From Jimgerdemannia flammicorona (Eukaryota): a DNA stretch of 33,432 nt. The position numbers were made by a program, and so were the translations under genes. The stretch is from the NCBI GenBank assembly GCA_003990765.1, contig RBNJ01000311.1, forward strand, positions 1 to 33,432, written 5' to 3'. The notes under the pieces are model-generated. The model searched no databases and was not told where the DNA came from. It saw only the letters and a program-made list of their open reading frames with translations. This document shows, in pieces, positions 16,001-31,429 of this stretch (the stretch's first letter is position 1; every line of letters starts with the position of its first letter).

Positions 16001-17489
16001 TTCATCTCAATCATAAAAACACACACGACGCTGCCAAGGGGGGTTTTTTTTTTTTTTTTTTTTTTTTTCTTGGTCGCTTCCTATTATCACATACATGGGT
16101 TCATTTCTGCCGAATTTCACACCCAGACTCCTAATACCACCGAACCCAACCTGTTTGCCACAAATTTGCTATTGCTACATTACGTCCGATCAGTTTCCCC
16201 TAATCCTGCCATCGCCAACATGCGTTTTCGCACCAAACGACGAGTAAGATCTGGGCCGCGCTCAAAGAGATGGAACAACGAACTTGCCGAAAAGTTGCTG
16301 TGGGAGGCCGCATCAATCAATATTAATATTATGTAATTGAACAGCGGCTGGGAGGCAATGGTCAATGTTCTAAAGCCAGATGTCGTCCCGTGTGGCATCT
16401 GTAGATATCGGCACGTGTAGCATAATGATGGTAGATTTCAGGTTTTGGACTTGCCGATTTGACATCATCAATCGAAAGGTTGCAAAAACGATAGGAAGGC
16501 CGAAACCGCGCATTGCGAAACGCCCCAAAAGAAATCGTTGCCTTGACCATTTTACTGGACTTTACCGAAAGATTATGACCAACGCCGTGCGTGACAAATA
16601 CGCTCCATCCGCAAGAAAATCTAAAAAGGAAATTTTCTTTAAGATTAAGAACCACTGCGGTTTTTGGCCTCCAAAAGGTCAATATTCCAGAATAAGATGC
16701 GGTACGATACGATCCGTGCAAAGGGGGGGGGGAGGGAGGGAGGACGGGGCGTGCGGCACCAGAATTAACAGGACGCCGAGGGGGGCTCCTGCAAACAAAC
16801 CCTGAGTTCGAAAGGCTCGGAGAGTTGATGAATGAAGCCGACGATTAAGACCAGAATGAATAACTCTCCGAGACTGCGGATGGTCATCTAAAGGAGATCT
16901 ACTAGTAGCGTAAGCAAACGTGGTAAAGATGAGTTGCCGCAGGAGACGACCCACGTCTACACCTCGCCAATACTGCCGGTGCTAGTTACTGCTTCTAAAG
17001 AACCTGTTTGGGGCGGGAAACCGGTATCCAAAATTCACGGCACACCCGGCGAGGAAGAAGGACTACACGACAGCTGCGTATCGTAGAAGAAAGAAGAGAA
17101 CGACGCAACTCTGATATGACAATTATTTTTAGTCCTCCTAGAACATTTCAGTCATCATTACTGTATGTAACACAACTAACCCCGTTCTGGCAAACGGGAA
17201 GGAAAAAGTTGACAGAAATCCATTGCCAGATTTGATTCATGTCCGTTACCCATATAAAGAACTGCGGCACCAGTCAGTTTTCGACGTTCAGATCCTGGCG
17301 GAAATTAATATCTAGCCCTAAATCATTGAATAACCCCTTATTCAATGAATTAGCCTAACCAGGTTAAGTTGGAAATGAATTATCCCATTGACAGTTACAT
17401 CATTGGGCCGGTATGTCAATCCGTGTGTCTTTGATGTAAAGGCTGGTGTTTTACTCATTTAACATCTTCAAACCCTAATAAAATCATTT

Positions 17490-18250
17490 CACTGTTTATA
17501 GTTTAAATAATAACTATTGATTTATTTTAAACATGTATATAAAATAAGTAAAAATAAAAATATAATAAAAATATATAATAAATTATTATTATTTATTTAT
17601 TTATAAAATTTTAGATATAGTTTATATGTATATAGTTAAATTTGACTATAATATAAAGCAAGAGATATAAAACTGAGAGATAGTTATTATAATTTTAGTA
17701 AAAAGTAGGTTTAAATTATTTTATATTTCTTTTCATTTATTTATAAAAAAAAACTCTCAATTAAATATAAAATTTTAATATTATTAAATATTTTTTATTA
17801 AAATAAATAATATTTTAAAGATTTATTTTAAACTTTTGCTAAGATTTCAATAGTATTATAAATATTATATTTTAATATTTAAATTTTATTTGCTTAATAT
17901 ATTAAAGTATTTATATAATTAAAAATATATAATTTTTATTTTAAAGATTAATAGTTAAGATTTATAAATTAAATAAAAATTATAAGACTATTTAATAAAT
18001 AATAATAATAACCTCTCTTTATTATAAAAATTTGTTATTAACTAAAATTTATAAAATTATATAATACTATATTAATTATTATAAATTTACTATATCATAA
18101 TGATTTCTTGAGTCTTAATATAATATTAACTATACTTAAACAACAGAACCTTACATTTGGTTTATTATAAAAAGTCTTTGTTATGAAAACACGCTATTAA
18201 AAATAATTTGCTTTATATACAAGATTAGATGTTAGATAATTATAAACAAG
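17490..18250. other. Extreme AT-rich island, probably a hypermutated repeat relic
   Basis: Almost only A/T; the remaining G and C occur mostly as AG/CT; no ORFs; abrupt compositional borders. Confidence 0.6.
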
Positions 18251-18776
18251 TTTTCTGATCGAATGAGAGCAAAATGAATAGCTAGAATAGCAAATGTAAA
18301 CAGCTTACAAGCAGTCACTTGGATGGCTTTAAAGAAAATGTTGCAGCGAGAAAAAAGTCTTTGGGGTTGGGGCTATGCCCACCCACCCGCTACAGTCATT
18401 TCTCATCCGTGGCGAAGCTCGAAAATCTATTCCCGCCCACAGGGTTTCAGCTTTCCCTACCAAACCTTGACGCCGTGGCGAAATCTCTGAGGAAGCCGAG
18501 GTTCGAATTACCCGTCGAACTCAAGATATTCGTAACAGACGATCCATGGAGCGGATCGCGAAAGTAAGGGGCTCCGATACGAATAGTCCCGATTGGATGA
18601 AGGATCAGTTTTTAGTTTGTGGTGCAAACACCAAACATATAACGTCCATCGCTTTGACCTGTCCCTCTGAAGCATTAGAGATATCATTCGTGGCCTCAAC
18701 GCCCTTACCCTCCAGACTACGTTGCTTTCCCCCGCAACGAATATGACATTTCGCCTTCCTGCGCTGAGCCTCCCAG

Positions 18777-20414: not shown

Positions 20415-20576
20415 TGGCAGCATCAGTGTCAATTTCGGCAAAACGGTAATTTAGGGTTTAAGAAACTACATGTGCGGTATGGTACTTTATTGGGCTAGGG
20501 AAACACTCCGAGCCTACTTACATAAAGTCTGAAACCTGAATCCCCAACTCCTCAACTCTTCGAGTCAATTGTGGAG

Positions 20577-22679
20577 ATGGCCAGCACCGACAGTTCATAC
20601 GACTACCGCGATTTCCAGCATATCTGGAACCCCGCCAAAACCGACAACACCCCAAAACGAACACGCGAGGCTTGCATACGGTGTCGCAGTAAGAGATCCA
20701 GATGCGACGGTGAGAAACCGTGTCACCGGTGTCGGCATGTTCACGCCGAGTGCGAATACTCACAGTCCAAGATGCGCATGCTAAAGGAGTCCACTACCAT
20801 TGGTACCTACGAATCTCAAGACGACGAGGAGGGAGAGATGGATCTTTTGCACGAAGTGCATGCACTGGAGGATGCGCTAGACAAGTTGAGCGCCGAGATT
20901 CTGCAGCTAAAACGTCGGACGCCTGCGAACCGGGAAGGCTTAAATGATTATCCGAGTCCACCACTTTCTAACGCCGATGAGGACAAGTATGCGGAGGGTG
21001 AGTTACATGGAAAGAAGGATGATTCTGTGGTAGCTCTGGGCAACACCAACATCTACACCGAAAAGAAACAGTGGGTCATAGCGATGACCAAGAAAGGAAT
21101 CCGGCTCGAAGCGACCAATACTCGTCAGTTTTACGAACTTTTGGCACATATTGTCAACTCCGCCGCGATTCACCGCGGGCCGCCAACAGTATCTCGCCCA
21201 ATCGGAACTCAAGCTATGACCAGCCTGGCGACGGCTCAATGGCCCAGATGGCGCCGTATGCAAAAGTTCAACACGAAAAAGCGTATACCTATTTTCTCGC
21301 CGGATCCTCTGTTTGACGTTTCGACCCTCGTCATCACCTCCGAGATGGAAGAGGTGTTGTTGAACCTTATCCTACTGCAAAGTGCCGAATGCTCTGTCGC
21401 TCTTCCTCGGAAGGTATTCATTGAACGGTTGTTTTCGTATAATTGGACCCAAAGACTTTCATCCCCCCACGATATGGCCCTCTGTTTTGCCCTCTGCGCA
21501 ATGAATGCCCAACACTTTCTGGCGCACCACATTGACACAACCACACTAAACCTATCGCCCGGCTTCAACACGAGCGAATTCGGTCGAAAGCTAGCCACAA
21601 GGTATTTCTCAAAGGCGCGGGACCTTTTAATGGATCAAGTCTTCGATTACGAATCTAATTACTTGTGTGCAGAAATCGTGGATGCCCTGCACGCCATGTT
21701 CCATTACGTCGTTACCGAGGGTAATCTTGATCTTGCTTCGGTCTACCTCAACATGGCCATCCGAGTCGCGACCCAACTGGATTATCACAAAGCTTTACGT
21801 GACTCGAATGACACCGTCGTCAACGTCGCCGAGCTCGAGAAAGCGCTGACGTGGAATCTCTTGGCCTGCGAAGACCAAGCCATAGCTGCCGTTCTTGGGA
21901 ACCAATCAACCCATACCACCGCCGACGACACGCATCTCAACCTCCTCGACATCACGGTCCGCGTGCCCGCCGACATGTCACAGGACAAGCTGCAACGGCT
22001 TAATGAATTCTTTTACACGGCCAGGAGCTCCGCCATCTCGCGCGATTTTCTTAACGCCTGGTGGGGCGACGGCTCCACCGACCCAACCAAGGATCAGCTA
22101 GACCAATTCGTCGCGGCGTTTGCGCGCTGGGAGGAGGAGCTCCCATTCGATTTGCGCGTCTTGCCTTCCAGTGGCACGGCATTCAGATCCCGCATCTCCT
22201 TTTTCCTCGCCGTCAACATCCAGCTCTATTACCAAATTTCCTTGATCATCTTGTACTACCCATTTACACGCACCGTCCACCCGAACCCATCATCCCTCCC
22301 ACCGGAACTCCCTGAGGAGGCTGAGCGCGCTTATTCCCAGGCCGCCGTCATGGCCACGCGGCTGTTGGTTACGTACGTCCGCGAGGGCGGATGTATGTTC
22401 CCCATCAACGTATATCCAATCGCGAGCAACGCTCACATGCAGCTCGCCATGTCTAAGGACGAGAAGATCGCGAAGACTAACCGGGCGTATGTGGCGAGGG
22501 TTTTGAGAACGGTTAAATGGACGAAAGAATACCAGTTGCGGCAGCATGATTTTCGGAATTTGGCCATGTTGTTGGAGGAGTTCATGATAAGTGAGGGGAT
22601 CGACGTGGATGCCGATGCGAAGTTGGGGCCGGAAGATGATTATTTCACTGTCATTAGAACACCAGGGGTAGGGTGGTGA
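20577..22679 (+). CDS. Zn(II)2Cys6 (GAL4-like) transcription factor with fungal TF middle homology region, intronless, about 700 aa
   Basis: ACIRCRSKRSRCDGEKPCHRCRHVHAECEY, a coiled-coil linker, and a YLNMAIRVATQLDYHK-type middle-homology motif; single long ORF from the ATG at 20577. Confidence 0.93.
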   Translation: MASTDSSYDYRDFQHIWNPAKTDNTPKRTREACIRCRSKRSRCDGEKPCHRCRHVHAECEYSQSKMRMLKESTTIGTYESQDDEEGEMDLLHEVHALEDALDKLSAEILQLKRRTPANREGLNDYPSPPLSNADEDKYAEGELHGKKDDSVVALGNTNIYTEKKQWVIAMTKKGIRLEATNTRQFYELLAHIVNSAAIHRGPPTVSRPIGTQAMTSLATAQWPRWRRMQKFNTKKRIPIFSPDPLFDVSTLVITSEMEEVLLNLILLQSAECSVALPRKVFIERLFSYNWTQRLSSPHDMALCFALCAMNAQHFLAHHIDTTTLNLSPGFNTSEFGRKLATRYFSKARDLLMDQVFDYESNYLCAEIVDALHAMFHYVVTEGNLDLASVYLNMAIRVATQLDYHKALRDSNDTVVNVAELEKALTWNLLACEDQAIAAVLGNQSTHTTADDTHLNLLDITVRVPADMSQDKLQRLNEFFYTARSSAISRDFLNAWWGDGSTDPTKDQLDQFVAAFARWEEELPFDLRVLPSSGTAFRSRISFFLAVNIQLYYQISLIILYYPFTRTVHPNPSSLPPELPEEAERAYSQAAVMATRLLVTYVREGGCMFPINVYPIASNAHMQLAMSKDEKIAKTNRAYVARVLRTVKWTKEYQLRQHDFRNLAMLLEEFMISEGIDVDADAKLGPEDDYFTVIRTPGVGW

Positions 22680-24744: not shown

Positions 24745-25452
24745 AATATTGGGCGTATGGTGCAGTACAAGGGTGCGGGTGCTTTAGAGTCATGGCGAAA
24801 AATAAATACGGCCATGGTTTTTGTGTCCATAGACATGATTTCTGAATGTTGGGTGAGGTTAGGCAGGCACGTCAAATTGATTATAACTTTAGTGTTGCTT
24901 GATATGTATGCCTGCGAGCTTTTGAAAATCCTCGCCATGTATTATTTGACTACCACGTATTATTCGACTAGCTCAAGCGTCGCCGGACAATCCAATCTGC
25001 AAGGGTCGCCAGCGTCGCATGATGCTCGTCATGCAAGAATATATATTTTTGGGTTTCAAGATTGTTGTGCCTGCACCGTTTGGCCGTTGGGTGACTGGGT
25101 CCTTTTCGCTCTCTTTTTGATGTCGCTTGCTATTTATGATATGGCCACGATCTTTGTGATACTGCAGATATATCACGCACTAATGTACACTAATGATGTC
25201 TCATTGGCTACAGAGCACGTGGAAAAGTTTGGAAGTTGATCGGCATGCATGATGCAAAGGTGCATCAGAGGATGTCTATCGGAGCCCGACTCCGGCCACC
25301 ATGTGGAACAGGTCGATGATGGTAAAGCCGAGAGCAGAGCCGAGAACCGGTGGCTTGGTGGAGTCGTCACGTGTGACTGGGAACCCTCCGCCCGTTTCTT
25401 TTCTTCTGACATGATTCAGCCTATCTTCATCCCTCTTCTTTATCTCCTAAGC

Positions 25453-27703
25453 ATGGAGCTTTCGTACGTCGCAGACCCCTCCCACCCACCCTCATCCTCA
25501 CTCATCATCCATAAGGACCATCCTTTCAACGCAGAACCGCCACTGCCACAGCTCGTCGAGCACTATGTCACACCCGAACCCACATTCTTTAAACGTAATC
25601 ACGGACCCATCCCGGACATCGATAAGACGAAGCATCGCGTCGAAGTGAAAGGTTTGGTGGCGACGAATTTGAGTCTGGGCGTGGAGGAACTGAGGAGCAG
25701 ATTCGAAAAGGTCGACGTCGTGGCCACTTTAGAGGTTGGTATAGGGTTTGGGTTGTAGGAGAAAAGAGAATGGTACAATGGATGTACTAACTCAAAAGGC
25801 GAATTTGTCTTTCGTGCTGCTCATTACCTTCTCAATCCTTCGTCCATGACTCTTTTTACTTACGCATTACCAGTGCGCTGGCAACCGCCGCGACCATCTC
25901 GACAAAGTCAAAAAGACCAAGGGAGTACGTAATGAGTAAATATCAATACCTTTTCCCCTGTTTTCTACTTCGCGTAACCTGATGTATCCTTTCCAACAGG
26001 TTATTTGGTCGGCTGGCGCAGTTGGTACGGCCTGGTGGACAGGTGCCCGCCTTCGCGACGTCCTGATGGCGGCCGGGGTTCGCACGGATCCGCGCAACCG
26101 CGTGCAGGCCACATGGCATGTTGCATTCGAGGGAGCAGACGAGTGTGAGGAGGAGAAGGACAAAGACGTGGGGAAGAGAGGCTATGGGTCGTCCATTCCA
26201 TTGGAGAAGGCCATGTGAGTATCTACATTGTTCTTTATGATGTGTGTGTGTGTGTGTGAAAGAGATTTTGACGGCCTGCATTTACGGTACGCGCACATGA
26301 TAAAAGACGAGAATAGAAGAAAGATGAAGGCAACGACCCGGGCTTCTAGTGGGATTCATTGCAGTTGCTCTTGTTTTATTTCTTGAGTTTTCCATTCAAG
26401 ATCTATTCTGAAAGGATGGATACTCATGAATATATTCATTTTCGTTCACACACAGGGATCCGCTTGGCGACGTATTGCTCGCCTACGAGGTATGATTACG
26501 CTAGATCGCCTCGTTCATTTGGTGCATAGTGTGGGAGGACCGCAGGTGACGCCACGTGGGAATCCGACGGAGGAAACCAACACAAATCAACACGTCTCTC
26601 TATTAAATTCCCGCCAGATGAATGGAAAGCCACTCTCCCGCCTTCACGGCTATCCTATCCGCGTCGTCGTCCCAGGCTACATTGGCGCTCGCTCAGTTAA
26701 ATGGCTCGCGCGGATCACCATCCAGGCCGAGGAATCAAGGGCGTTCTTCCAGCAGCGGGACTATAAGATTTTGCCCCCTTTTGTAAGTGTTAATATAGGG
26801 TTGGTGAGAAGCAAAAAAAAAAAACGTAATACTATGCAATACTATTAACCAAATCAACCGATTCATTGTCCCTAGGTAACATCTGACGAGGAGGCCGCAG
26901 AATACTGGGACCGTGTGCCCTCAATTGGGGAGACGAACGTGCAGAGCGTGATCTGCGAGCCGGCGAGTGCAGAGGATGTGAGGCCTGGCATGGCTACAGT
27001 ACGCGGGTACGCATTTTCAGGTGAGTTACATTTGTTTGCATCAAGAGCTTTCGTCATGGTTGATATTGGGCTTTGTGTACAATATTACATTTAATTTATC
27101 TGCCTTTTGATTTTATTGACATCTAGGGGGCGGCAGGCTCATCCAGCGAGTTGGTAAATGTTCTTTATTTCCTGCTCTACAATCATTGAATTCTTTAAAG
27201 GGGGGGAGGGGGGATAAAGTTTCTATACTCAAACTCTCATAAATTCCTCCACCAGACCTCTCAATCGATGGTGGCCAGACTTGGCGCTGTGCTGACCTCT
27301 GCCAACCTTCGACCGGCCCGCGTCAGTGGTCATGGTGCCTGTGGCAGGCGCGCGTGCGGCTGGAGAAGGACTCGAGACTTGTGTGTCGGGCGGGTAAGTT
27401 GATTTTCATGGTTATGGGCGTCGTATCATCACACGATGTCCCAAGGTTGTGGAACATATATCTCACATTTCTTTATTCTGGATACGGTGCTCTCCAGTCG
27501 ATTTGGCCGGCAACACACAGCCAGAAGAACCCATGTGGAATTACCGCGGGGTGATGAGTAACGCAAGGTTCCGCATTCCCGATAACAAGGTGCCGGCCCA
27601 AAGTTACGAGAAGAAGGGCAAGAAATTGACACAAACTCAGCCGCCCGTACATATTCAGGCTCATTTGTCGGACAAGAAATCAGGAACAAAAGCCAATTTC
27701 TGA
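25453..27703 (+). CDS. Molybdopterin sulfite oxidase without a cytochrome b5 domain (plant-type), about 9 exons
   Basis: PFNAEPP, FFKRNHGPIP, the Moco cysteine in LE|CAGNRR, YGSSIPL, LLAYE|MNGKPLSRLHGYPIRVVVPGYIGARSVKWL, GYAFS|GGGR, WNYRGVMSN; ATG at 25453, stop at 27701-27703. Confidence 0.92.
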
Positions 27704-28484
27704 AAGCTGTTTCGCTCGTAATGTGCCGTGTTAATGTGAATGAACACAGTCTGTGGTCACTTTGGGTTTACCTTTTTTTTTACTTCTTTTCTTCTATCTC
27801 CTCGGTGATTTGTCGCACGGATACAAACGAGTCCTCCATTTTCTCTGCGTGATTCATCGGACATTTTGCATATTTCTGACCTATACTTCTACAGAATTCC
27901 TGTACAGAGGTGCATTTAATCTACATGAGAACTATATACATGAGAACTATCTGTAACCAACGCTGACTGCTATTTCATAGCAAATATATCGTAGATCAGT
28001 TGGTTTTACACTTCATTTCCATCATGGATGTTTTTTGCTGCAGTATCTCCATAAATTTTCTGGTATATACTGAATCTGAAAAATGCCACTCATGATTTGA
28101 TCGGATGGCTCGAGTTGCACATCACAGTATTGGCCTAGCCACTGCCAAATCTATGCCAACTGGTGCTCCTGGCAAACTTGTGGACCACATGCATTATGGA
28201 CTCAAGTAACAAATGATGATAGTCGAATGCATTACAAAATGTCCCTTATTCTTATAAGGCACCATGCTATTAGCATTCCCATAGAACCTTTCGTCGCTTA
28301 ACAAAGGCCACACCTGCAAGCGGCGCAAAGCGTTGGATCGCGGGCAGGCAAAGACGGATCCCCACCCCGTGCAGAGGTCCCATTGCTGACGTGAGCATGG
28401 TTGCCGAGGCCTTGTGGCCGAGGCCGCGCGAGCACGTTGCCGCGAGCGCGGTTGCTATGAGTGCGGTTATACTGGCTCTCTTAC

Positions 28485-28562
28485 TAGTGTAGCTTTGTTT
28501 GCGTGTAAGCGCGGCCTTGTGTAGTGTAGCTTTGTTTGCGTGAAAGCGCGGTCCTTGTGTAG
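28485..28562. repeat. Two-copy 37/38-bp tandem repeat, preceded by a GC-rich short-repeat tract (about 28400-28470)
   Basis: tagtgtagctttgtttgcgtgtaagcgcggccttgtg / tagtgtagctttgtttgcgtgaaagcgcggtccttgtg. Confidence 0.85.
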
Positions 28563-28624
28563 CATAACTTTATTGGAGCCATTAGCCATCTTTGGTCAGA
28601 AATGTTGGACGCCTATATTGGAAC

Positions 28625-29800
28625 CTAAATTAGGGTACAAGTCCTGCAAGGGAGTAGGCTGACTCTGGTGAGGTAACGAAGGAGAATGTTGCAACACCTT
28701 GGACCCACCTAGGCCATGGTGGAGATATCCACAGCATCTGCATGTACTCTTCTGTATAGAGAATGATCTGACACAATAGGTGCTTGTGCATTTGATGTTA
28801 CCAAAAATAGAAGTGCGACCATGTATACATTGCACGTGCAGTCTTAGAATGAATATGATGCCCTCATCTGACCATCCTCTACATGCAGAACTCTAGTAGG
28901 AGAATAATACAAAAGTTCTCACATAGCCACTATGCGAGCTTATGATAGTAGTCATTGATTAGGCATCAAATTCACTTGCTGTAATCTGTAAATGGTAATT
29001 TTACATATAAGTTTGTATAAGTAAATAAAATACTTCAGCAAAAATGATGCCTGCTTAAATTCAACCTCATGCATGCCAAACCATCCCAAACTGACCTGTA
29101 GTACTTACATTTGTTCACCTTCTCATAGATGCTGTCTCACTTGTTCTGCAGTCTGTCATATATATGGCTCAGTCTGTAGATATGGGCAATATCATTCTTT
29201 CTCCACTCATTACTAGCTCACTCAATTGCTAGCCCACTTGAGTTGTATCTAGTCATAAATTTTTGCACACCAGAATCCAGTATAATAACCCCTGCACTCC
29301 TTTCACCAGACATAGGACCTTGACTCTCAGCCCATACATTGGAATATAGAGATAGAATTTACTAAGATAATTTATTATAAGCTAACTATCATACTCAAGA
29401 CTAGAGAGGAATACAAATTCACCATGTGATTTCTCCCAGTACTTGAAAAGTATTGCAACTGACTGCTGATAGTCCTTTTTAGAATGAAACTTTATTTAAA
29501 ACATCTTGTATTTTGCTGTAAAGTTGAAGGCATACTTATTATAGATACATATCATATAGTATCTCCAGAACTCACTTATCATTATCTTTAAAGTTGAAAG
29601 CATTGAAATACTGTATCTACAGATTCTTTTTATAATATTTTATGCCTTTATTTTGAACTATAATGAGACACTAATTATAAGTCTACTGTATTGTCTCTAT
29701 CTATGCTCAGAGCTTTTCTCACTCATTGTAGATAGGAAAAAGATAGATATATCACATCTTACTCACTAGAGATTTCTCTTCTTTCATCTTTTTCTTAAAG
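28625..29800 (-). pseudogene. tnpB: TnpB/Fanzor2 RNA-guided RuvC nuclease pseudogene
   Basis: N-terminal YIYLFP..E*EKL*A*IETIQ*TYN*CL, then K*VLEILYD, KFHSKKDYQQSVAI and LEYDS*LIINYLSKFYLYIP. RuvC-I GVIILDSGVQKFMTRYNSSG (Asp at about 29275-29277). RuvC-II KLA*WLCENFCIILLLEF (Glu at 28891-28893). Then SKTARAMYTWSHFYF, TEEY, CRCCGYLHHGLGGSKV and NILLRYLT. Confidence 0.9.
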
Positions 29801-29829
29801 GTCTTAGGCTTTTTTGATAATTTCTTATC

Positions 29830-29973
29830 TTTTTTTATAATTAGTAGTAGAACATAATTCATTATGTTATACTATAAATACTATAATGATAGAGAGTAGA
29901 TCTTCTGTAAGCTTACCAGCCTCACTGTTATCAGCATCAATATTAGAACCAAGTATCACAAGTTGAGTCTTAT

Positions 29974-30015
<42 letters not shown>

Positions 30016-30925
30016 ACTTGGACTCTTCCTTTATTACCCCCATCTATCCCATATAAGTACAGTGAACCCACCCCCTATCCAATCCCCCTAGGGGGGCCCC
30101 TCCCCTCTTCTTCTTCTCGATGAAACACCACTCTATCAAAAACAATCCCCACCCTCCTATATACCACTCTATTTACATATCCTTGCTATTAAACCTTACC
30201 ATCGCCCCTCTGAAGGACTCCAACCTATCCACCATCCAGTCATCAGATCCCCCAACAGCTCCTCCCACCTTAAAATCTTCTCCTACAGTGTCATCTGCCA
30301 CTCTTTCTCAAATACAAATAGCCAATGTCCTGCCAATCCCACCCAAACTGCTAATACCCAACTAACAGTGAGCTAACTATTACCCACCCCCCCTACTAGC
30401 CGAGATCTCAAATCCTCCCAGCAATCCCCCTCATCTGCCAGCCTGTGCTCCACACTCAGTCTATTCTCTATTTCAACCCAAAAGTCCCCCAAAATGAGTC
30501 TTATTCTTTGTAAAGATCTACTTTATAAGCTCTAATCCAAAATAACACAGCTGGTCCTTTTGGGTAACTACCACTTCTTCAACTCCTCTTGCATATATGT
30601 ATTCCAAAAGGGCTATAAAACTCCTATATTTCTAGTTAAGCCCTGAACTGATATTGCTGATAATCTCATGGCTTGGGAAATACTTTTGCAGATCAGTGAT
30701 TTATCATTTGAGGTCTCATTGTTGGTGTTCTGAGCTAACTCTGATATAGCAGACCTTGACCTTTTTTGTGATCTGGTTTGTTGGTTGGTTGTCACCAAAA
30801 GCTCTTCACACATTTGTGATAGAGTAGAGTTGTTTGCCACCAGAGATTCTGACAATAGCAATTTTTCCAACATCATATGTCTCTTGTATTTTGCTCGTGC
30901 TTGTGTATGTAGTATTGGTTGTATT
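29830..30925 (-). pseudogene. tnpA: IS607-type TnpA serine recombinase pseudogene (split by the LINE at 29976-30494)
   Basis: SKIQETYDV.GKIAIVRISGGKQLYS (wHTH remnant). KVCYIRVSSEHQ (YxRVSS catalytic-Ser motif, about 30731-30748). EIISNISSGLN*K, VEEVVVTQKDQLCYFGLEL, then, across the LINE, KTQLVILG...KLTEDLLSIIIVF. Confidence 0.9.
29976..30494 (-). mobile_element. 5'-truncated LINE insertion with poly(A) tail and 15-bp TSD
   Basis: Poly(T) at 29976-30009. TGAGTCTTATTCTTT is duplicated at 29964-29978 and 30495-30509. AATAAA on the - strand just before the tail. 3' end similar to 1180-1235. Confidence 0.9.
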
Positions 30926-31429
30926 TTTGTAGGATTGTGGAATAATGCGGAGTATTCACAAAAGATAATATGCGCGTTTCGCATGTTGCTTTAAAAAAGG
31001 TAACGCCACTAAATGTACGGTCATATATATTAATAAGATGAATTGTGTGGTTTATTTCGGAATGTTCGAAAATGATTCAACGGTGCATAAACTCGAATGC
31101 TTGATAGTGATACACCAGTAGTATCCTACATCAGTATACGTCGCTTTTCGGACCAGAGCGAATGACAATGTGATATATTGATACCGAGATGTCCAAATAA
31201 AAGATGCTCGTGATAACAAAATAAAGGGAACATGATTGGGTCTCAACACATTCCACACATAAAGTGCTAATAATGCCATAATGTCACATGTGCAAAGTCT
31301 GTCCATGCATTCCGTGCCCCTAACCACCCTCTCTCTCATGCACAGGAGGGAAAGAAAAAAAAAGTGAAACAAACACCACGGAAATTCCTCGTGCAAGGTT
31401 GTTCCGAACAGCTGTCCGCAACCCGCCCA

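Follow-up and report, generated by a model that had tools for sequence, protein, structure and literature searches.

Eukaryotic IS607-type DNA transposons (IS607EU) carry a serine recombinase gene, tnpA, and a Fanzor2 gene on one strand, have no inverted repeats that could be found, and turn up patchily, often as fragments, in fungi, amoebae, algae, and giant viruses, according to the accessible portions of three reports (Bao & Jurka 2013, PMC3627910; Gilbert & Cordaux 2013, PMC3673617; and the review PMC13565253). The fungal cases named in those portions are Ustilago hordei and yeasts that have Fanzor2 alone. In a 33,432-nucleotide stretch of the genome of the fungus Jimgerdemannia flammicorona (GenBank assembly GCA_003990765.1, contig RBNJ01000311.1, positions 1 to 33,432; hereafter the window), we analyzed a decayed element that spans about 28,640-31,085 on the minus strand, as delimited by homology to relatives. 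We are highly confident that it is a single, ancient, inactivated IS607EU copy in a fungal chromosome, with both tnpA and Fanzor2. It resembles the described elements in having the two genes on one strand; it differs from the named fungal cases in carrying both genes and in having relatives in Glomeromycotina, and the introns of its family set it apart from IS607EU as those portions describe it. The IS607EU/Fanzor2 class is already described in the same reports, and the window copy is a further member; the supplementary tables of the Fanzor papers, with their lists of fungal Fanzor2 loci, may already include its family.

The mimivirus Fanzor2 of PDB entry 9B0L ("TnpB-like protein L79") is ApmFz2, whose N-terminal domain is described as absent from TnpB structures in the accessible part of PMC11832414. 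A DPG motif together with an alternative catalytic Glu is the published fingerprint of Fanzors and pro-Fanzors (Yoon et al. 2023, PMC10711439, accessible part). Relatives of the window copy have in common with ApmFz2 the DPG motif, the alternative Glu, the zinc finger, the Arg-Asp (R-D) pair, and the N-terminal domain; the window copy itself is unlike ApmFz2 in that the second CxxC and RuvC-III are gone and DPG has suffered a Pro-to-Ser change. Cyanobacterial pro-Fanzor IS607 elements, as presented in the accessible part of PMC10711439, share DPG, the alternative Glu, and an IS607 tnpA partner with the window's family. In the loci that we analyzed, they also have the same nested +1 layout of the two genes. 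They differ in their prokaryotic hosts, their lack of introns, the ATG starts of both genes, and their place on the other side of our tree. Fanzor1 (e.g., SpuFz1, PDB 8GKH) is also a TnpB-derived eukaryotic RNA-guided nuclease (PMC11832414), with the alternative Glu, introns, and nuclear localization signals (PMC10530073), again as given in the accessible portions of these papers.

The recombinase and nuclease pseudogenes

A sequence-only reading of this DNA had proposed a serine recombinase plus a TnpB/Fanzor2 nuclease on the minus strand, dead and essentially invisible in the open reading frame (ORF) track. This proposal held up: profiles NF033518 and PF00239 match the recombinase, relatives identify the nuclease by phmmer and tblastn, every peptide motif quoted in that reading appears in a read-through translation of the minus strand over 28400-31200, and the longest ORF there has 125 aa (30613-30990). 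Its upstream bound of 31007 was too short, homology to relatives reaching about 31083 in the DNA alignment.

The tnpA pseudogene, encoding an IS607-type serine recombinase with a helix-turn-helix (HTH) at its N terminus and a resolvase domain, lies at 29765-30889 on the minus strand. Its frame-2 translation (first base, 31198) matched NCBIfam NF033518 (transpos_IS607) at an E value of 3.6e-24 with 85.3 bits, a score that falls below the curated 110-bit cut-off because tnpA is split, and in the same frame Pfam PF00239 (Resolvase) scored 25.3 bits, above its cut-off of 23.3. When the N-terminal 129 codons were compared with 5.8 billion proteins, two of four candidates proved to be relatives; the best, P0001, is a 212-aa Joint Genome Institute (JGI) protein annotated as a "predicted site-specific integrase-resolvase," with 71% identity. 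In tblastn against the window, P0001 residues 3-107 aligned to 30805-30491 (E, 1e-43; 70% identity) and residues 105-172 to 29968-29765 (E, 5e-20), the two pieces abutting exactly at a 517-bp insertion; with P0001 and P0002 as queries, nothing further appeared in the window below an E value of 5. YIRVSS, which includes the nucleophilic Ser, is found at 30748-30731, and DRLCRFG has decayed to DQLCYFG at 30556-30536 with loss of both Arg residues. Compared with P0002, the HTH is missing 11 codons, and once the insertion is removed the tnpA frame contains 9 in-frame stops over ~200 codons.

The Fanzor2/TnpB core (28639-29775, minus strand), consisting of an HTH_OrfB-like region, WED/REC, RuvC, and a zinc finger, is read across three frames, with at least 17 stops in its high-scoring segment pairs. 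When the frame-0 read-through of 28741-29799 was compared by phmmer with 1.84 billion cluster representatives, 544 proteins matched at E values of ≤1e-3, 100 at ≤1e-10, and 2 at ≤1e-30. We scanned 25 proteins against Pfam: PF07282 (Cas12f1-like TNB) was above its cut-off in all 22 full-length top matches (P0007 to P0030), most of which also had PF12323 and PF01385 (HTH_OrfB_IS605 and OrfB_IS605). The two closest matches, P0004 and P0005, are decayed gene models with weak OrfB_IS605, and P0003, translated from the metagenome locus L001, matched HTH_OrfB_IS605 at 8.7e-10. Used as tblastn queries in turn, relatives covered 29775-28639 of the window in frames -1, -2, and -1 with E values from 3.5e-45 to 1e-15 (P0003, 3.5e-45; P0005, 2e-38; P0007, 2e-25; P0011, 2e-26). 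A word-index search with a nuclease fragment returned 108 candidates, none of which scored. In the Pfam and NCBIfam scans for the nuclease in the window, the only matches, to DUF6336 and IF2_assoc at E values of 0.12-0.18, were taken as chance.

In an alignment of 108 relatives, the positions conserved in at least 90% were D357-P358-G359, E497, C504, C507, C522, C525, and R531-D532. The Glu of "LLPEF" varies among the relatives (in P0007 it is Lys), so the RuvC-II label that the sequence-only reading put on LLLEF is probably wrong, and the conserved catalytic Glu of the clade is that of TEEY, six residues before the first CxxC. In the window, the RuvC-I DPG reads DSG at 29277-29269, a Pro-to-Ser change of C>T origin; TEEY survives intact (28755-28744), followed by a small deletion; and the first CxxC survives at 28742-28731. 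Comparison with P0007 and P0011 places the junction of a ~50-nt deletion at 28693-28695 (minus strand), which shifts the frame and takes out the second CxxC and the RuvC-III Arg-Asp, and several further deletions of 10-30 nt also shift the frame. The hope that a copy of this kind could be reverted does not extend to the window's own sequence: with the second CxxC and the RuvC-III Asp missing, it cannot be mended from what remains. As judged from its sequence, the window copy is a pseudogene of the Fanzor2 family and not a working member, its C4 zinc finger and R-D pair no longer being complete.

Fold and PDB comparisons were made on the relatives P0007 and P0159 rather than on the window copy. 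The best solved relative of each was 9B0L (E, 2e-24 for P0007 and 1.1e-25 for P0159), with ISDra2 TnpB at 1e-11 and 7e-5, respectively. In an AlphaFold2 model of P0159 (mean predicted local distance difference test score, 81.9; predicted template modeling score, 0.79), residues 1-83 came out as disordered and residues 84-550 were modeled with confidence. Its best fold match was again 9B0L (Z, 24.5; root mean square deviation, 3.5 Å over 406 residues; 24% identity over the aligned fold), model residues 84-549 being placed on chain residues 53-518. ISDra2 TnpB matched (Z, 21.3) from model residue 168 onward only, and residues 84-167 of the model therefore correspond to the Fanzor2 N-terminal domain.

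The closest named relatives are from Diversispora epigaea (RHZ81291.1), Gigaspora margarita (CAG8680334.1), and a Phalansterium solitarium transcript. In a quick, unrooted FastTree of 202 rows that included partial query rows and flagged composition outliers, P0003 and P0005, which represent the window's family (support, 96), grouped with environmental proteins and the Phalansterium transcript, 21 viral rows lying on this side as well; the other side comprises 60 prokaryotic and 37 viral rows, and the split has SH-like support of 95. The Glomeromycotina relatives (Diversispora and Gigaspora) are decayed copies, and more intact ones occur in soil-type metagenome contigs. The window copy, being dead and unable to supply a working nuclease, is of little value in itself; its worth is that it points toward a lineage of Fanzor2, found in soil metagenomes and in fungi of the Glomeromycotina type, that has members with open frames. 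These open-frame relatives are candidates for compact RNA-guided nucleases suited to eukaryotic nuclei, given their introns and basic N-terminal tail.

Overlap of tnpA and the nuclease gene

The sequence-only reading had placed the nuclease directly after the recombinase. Instead, the two genes overlap: the N-terminal extension of the Fanzor2 pseudogene (29800-30876, minus strand), read in the +1 frame relative to tnpA, covers all of it. P0170 residues 48-134 match window positions 30765-30502 in this frame at an E value of 1.9e-5 (tblastn). The frame starts with ATGATG at 30876-30871, continues into a PFWN...KKW*LP motif, and contains 7 stops when the insertion is removed; the 125-aa ORF, the only sizeable one of the region, belongs to it.

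Relatives with DNA were obtained by scanning JGI metagenome contigs with P0001, which gave 594 pattern matches; three of these, the short loci L001 to L003, encode a relative. With the introns of L002 and L003 removed, the +1 frame is open in all three from upstream of the tnpA HTH into the nuclease core, and the +2 frame has 4-11 stops; in L001, both coding frames are open save for one stop at the tnpA end. When tnpA was shuffled among synonymous codons (5,000 shuffles per locus), the +1 frame stayed open in 0.3-0.4% of shuffles (P of 0.003-0.004 for each of three loci that are related to one another), and the +2 frame behaved as expected. Differences among the three loci fall mostly at tnpA third positions, and the third-position rate between L001 and L003 is lower in tnpA (0.36) than in the nuclease-only part (0.56).

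The overlap can also be traced in proteins. The L001 +1-frame translation is similar to the N termini of 45 of 150 phmmer matches, with E values down to 3.6e-25 in that small set. Where these N termini differ from L001, the L001 recombinase residue is still encodable in the hidden frame in 1370 of 3108 cases, versus 567 expected, and six internal controls (P0007, P0099, P0049, P0015, P0095, and P0018) were at chance in the same test. Of 26 cases free of gaps, 21 could encode a hidden YARVSS; for DRL-x-R, the figure was 31 of 44. On viral contigs, 60 of the 79 loci with a nuclease match have a same-strand recombinase, as do 73 of 80 on prokaryotic, mostly cyanobacterial, contigs; the +1 relation holds in 60/60 and 73/73, counts that are not independent events because both sets contain near-duplicate copies. 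Among loci with both ORFs intact, the median overlap is 533 nt (329-779; n = 41) in the viral set and 596 nt (425-680; n = 38) in the prokaryotic set, where the recombinase and nuclease ATGs are often 7-22 nt apart. We had considered the overlap as a eukaryotic innovation and dropped this idea in view of the cyanobacterial loci with the same layout.

We judge the case to be evenly balanced for a broader proposal, in which the Fanzor2 N-terminal domain is encoded by overprinting of tnpA, which lies wholly or for the most part inside the nuclease ORF in the -1 frame relative to it, and in which cyanobacterial pro-Fanzor IS607, giant-virus elements, and intron-bearing nuclear copies of fungi, the window copy's ancestor among them, have all retained this arrangement. 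The nesting is not worded in the accessible running text of PMC3627910, PMC10711439, and PMC13565253. Dual coding in eukaryotic copies and the start-codon arrangement described below are new here. Survival of a transposase inside a nuclease gene in eukaryotic nuclear copies would call for unusual translation of two frames on one mRNA, and it bears on the origin of the Fanzor2 N-terminal domain and on the coupling of transposase and nuclease doses.

An intact TnpA serine recombinase would excise and insert the element as double-stranded DNA, using no inverted repeats and leaving no target duplications, and an intact Fanzor2 with a guide RNA from the element's 3' end would cut the emptied donor site, whose repair would copy the element back. 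Such roles of TnpA and of homing are established for bacterial IS607 and IS605, and by analogy they may have been the same in the window's lineage. In this lineage, the Fanzor2 ORF begins near the tnpA start and extends through all of tnpA in the +1 frame; the overlap encodes a basic, KRPR-like tail at the N terminus, which is disordered, followed by the structured N-terminal domain specific to Fanzor2. The window copy, after CpG-focused C>T changes, small deletions, and the retroposon, can make neither protein.

The window's family has spliceosomal-type introns. Alignment with L003 defines a 110-nt GT..AG intron at 28986-29095 (minus strand) after KRKRY-R, at a position shared with an L003 intron and absent from L001; a start at GTAAGT near 29110 was discarded, as that alignment puts it at 29095. 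L002 and L003 contain AT-rich GT..AG introns, with two more in the nuclease part of L003. Within the dual-coding stretch of tnpA and the Fanzor2 N terminus, both have an intron (661-730 in L002 and 1309-1373 in L003) whose removal restores both frames; it is absent from L001 and the window, and the presence of this intron therefore varies within the family.

Upstream of the genes, a conserved noncoding block at 31040-31083 (minus strand), identified by DNA alignment with L002 and L003 and a motif scan and present in L001 as well, is probably a promoter or left-end region. Within it, L002 (93-105) and L003 (732-744) carry an intact GAAnnTTCnnGAA, of which GAACATTCCGAAA at 31067-31055 of the window is a decayed version; L001 has TTCnnGAAnnTTC at 67-79. 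We take the triplet array GAAnnTTCnnGAA (or its complement) to resemble a heat-shock element, and this array may be a candidate stress-responsive promoter. Between the block and the nuclease ATG, L002 and L003 have no ATG in any frame for 214-223 nt, so that the first ATG after the block is the nuclease's; in L001, a single additional ATG lies upstream. Differing codons of tnpA Y-D-V preserve the nuclease ATG, namely, TAT-GAC in L002 and L003 and GAT-GTC in L001, and the window has both. In all three loci, tnpA lacks an ATG, and an in-frame A-x-x-CTG-G precedes the HTH by 45-54 nt. These features suggest a single mRNA from which a little transposase might be made from a candidate CUG start and the nuclease by leaky scanning.

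A different arrangement of starts recurs among viral and cyanobacterial loci alike, where the recombinase and nuclease ATGs are repeatedly exactly 7 nt apart, as ATG-n4-ATG (L016-L020, L075, L076, L085, L087, L107, L109, and L113).

Decay of the copy and its likely origin

The sequence-only reading had assigned 29979-30509 (531 bp) to an insertion, and this was borne out. A 517-bp retroposon at 29978-30494, in the same orientation as the element (minus strand), lies between two perfect direct repeats of 14 bp (29964-29977 and 30495-30508), and its A34 tail lies on the minus strand; from the tail and the target-site duplications, we conclude that a poly(A) retroposon was inserted into tnpA. Two look-alikes of its 3' end occur elsewhere in the window, at 1183-1235 (54 nt; 89%) and 16044-16090 (47 nt; 83%), and suggest that the retroposon, SINE-like (SINE, short interspersed nuclear element) or a truncated LINE (long interspersed nuclear element), belongs to a multicopy family.

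The copy is dead by several measures: stops in both genes, deletions, the retroposon, and CpG mutation. Relative to the majority base of L001 to L003 over 1361 comparable columns, the window differs in 444, of which 228 are C>T or G>A. At 58 majority-CpG sites, the window has 21 TG, 15 CA, and 18 TA (54 mutated), 1 that is still CG, and 3 others. The observed-to-expected (o/e) CpG ratio is 0.10 over 28641-29978, 0.00 in 500-bp windows between 29001 and 30000, 0.19 in the retroposon insertion, and 1.03-1.06 in the two large flanks; the CpG-poor zone extends from about 28560 to 30947, with its 3' edge at about 28560-28610. C>T at CpA is also present (36 cases). Classical repeat-induced point mutation (RIP) produces C>T mainly at CpA and a low RIP index. 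Here, the index (CpA+TpG)/(ApC+GpT) is 1.34 in the element versus 1.15-1.25 in the flanks and so is not lowered, and with the loss concentrated on CpG we set aside classical Neurospora-type RIP in favor of CpG-centered cytosine deamination of a silenced repeat. CpG-confined decay of this kind marks a genome defense that targets repeats in this fungus.

Several results weigh against the identification of this region as an IS607EU element, among them the subthreshold NF033518 score, the quick tree, and the redundancy of the viral and prokaryotic loci mentioned above. The profile search proposed in the sequence-only reading succeeded for the recombinase models and failed for those of the nuclease, Pfam and NCBIfam giving 0 nuclease matches over 3 long frames and 7 shorter pieces, so the TnpB call on the putative nuclease rests on relatives. 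A self-blastn search revealed no second copy within the 33 kb, only the self match. The 3' noncoding tail (28560-28638, minus strand; from the CpG map) is where the omega-RNA scaffold and right end are expected; folding of 28540-28740 gave a z score of 0.87, which 161 of 200 shuffles equaled or bettered, and Rfam gave 0 matches at E values of ≤1 over 28200-31300, both in a decayed copy. No pair of terminal inverted repeats joins the ends, which is uninformative in a decayed copy with undefined ends, and the element ends, target dinucleotide, target-adjacent motif, and guide RNA were not found in the window copy.

Residence in a eukaryotic genome is indicated by a fungal Zn(2)-Cys(6) ORF nearby, the GT..AG intron, the poly(A) retroposon inside the element, and the eukaryotic named relatives. 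The fragment might nonetheless be endogenized giant-virus DNA that carried an IS607/Fanzor2 locus, rather than a transposon that moved in the fungal genome. Many relatives do lie on giant-virus-type contigs (the 79 viral loci), and the family falls on the virus/environment side of the tree. However, homology to relatives extends for only ~2.5 kb between ordinary, CpG-normal flanks with host-like gene fragments, a Pfam scan that took in 10 of the 40 ORFs with 130 aa or more found no other viral gene, the copy shares a spliceosomal-type intron with L003, and decayed related copies occur in two named fungi; we therefore hold a viral fragment to be quite improbable. A bacterial or cyanobacterial IS607, acquired by recent horizontal transfer or introduced by assembly contamination, would account for the 34-43% identity between cyanobacterial pro-Fanzor IS607 and the relatives and for the nested layout that both possess. 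It would leave the intron, the retroposon with its target-site duplication, the confinement of CpG decay to the element, and the eukaryotic flanks without explanation, and those relatives that stand nearest come from eukaryotes or environmental samples and not from cyanobacteria, which makes this origin extremely improbable.

The nuclease could, finally, be a Fanzor1 or an ordinary TnpB that happens to neighbor an unrelated recombinase, although we found nothing in favor of this. Fanzor1 has the alternative Glu and introns as well, but it is carried by Mariner, hAT, Helitron, and other elements, whereas the window nuclease is linked to an IS607 tnpA, in the layout that recurs at every viral and prokaryotic locus with a same-strand recombinase. 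ApmFz2 is the best match, N-terminal domain included, and the PDB sequences listed at E values of ≤0.01 for P0007 (19) and P0159 (15) include no Fanzor1 chain, nor do the listed fold matches, a point that counts only lightly. We regard this reading as very improbable, and we retain an IS607EU transposon with its own Fanzor2 as the explanation of the locus.

Genomic surroundings

An uninterrupted ORF at 20526-22679 (plus strand) encodes the 717-aa Zn(2)-Cys(6) protein, a fungal transcription factor with a PF00172 match at an E value of 3e-9 and a weak PF04082 match. Fragments of a molybdopterin oxidoreductase gene lie at 25240-26848 (plus strand), where PF00174 was matched in two ORFs, apparently split by introns. 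A 37-bp tandem repeat of ~3 units (28478-28590) abuts the 3' end of the element; two of its units, nearly the same as each other, are rich in CpG, the one closest to the element has decayed, and the array may be flanking DNA or a subterminal repeat of the element. Farther away, at 17000-18500, a 1.5-kb block has 20-27% G+C within a window of ~48% G+C, with a normal CpG o/e of 1.11.

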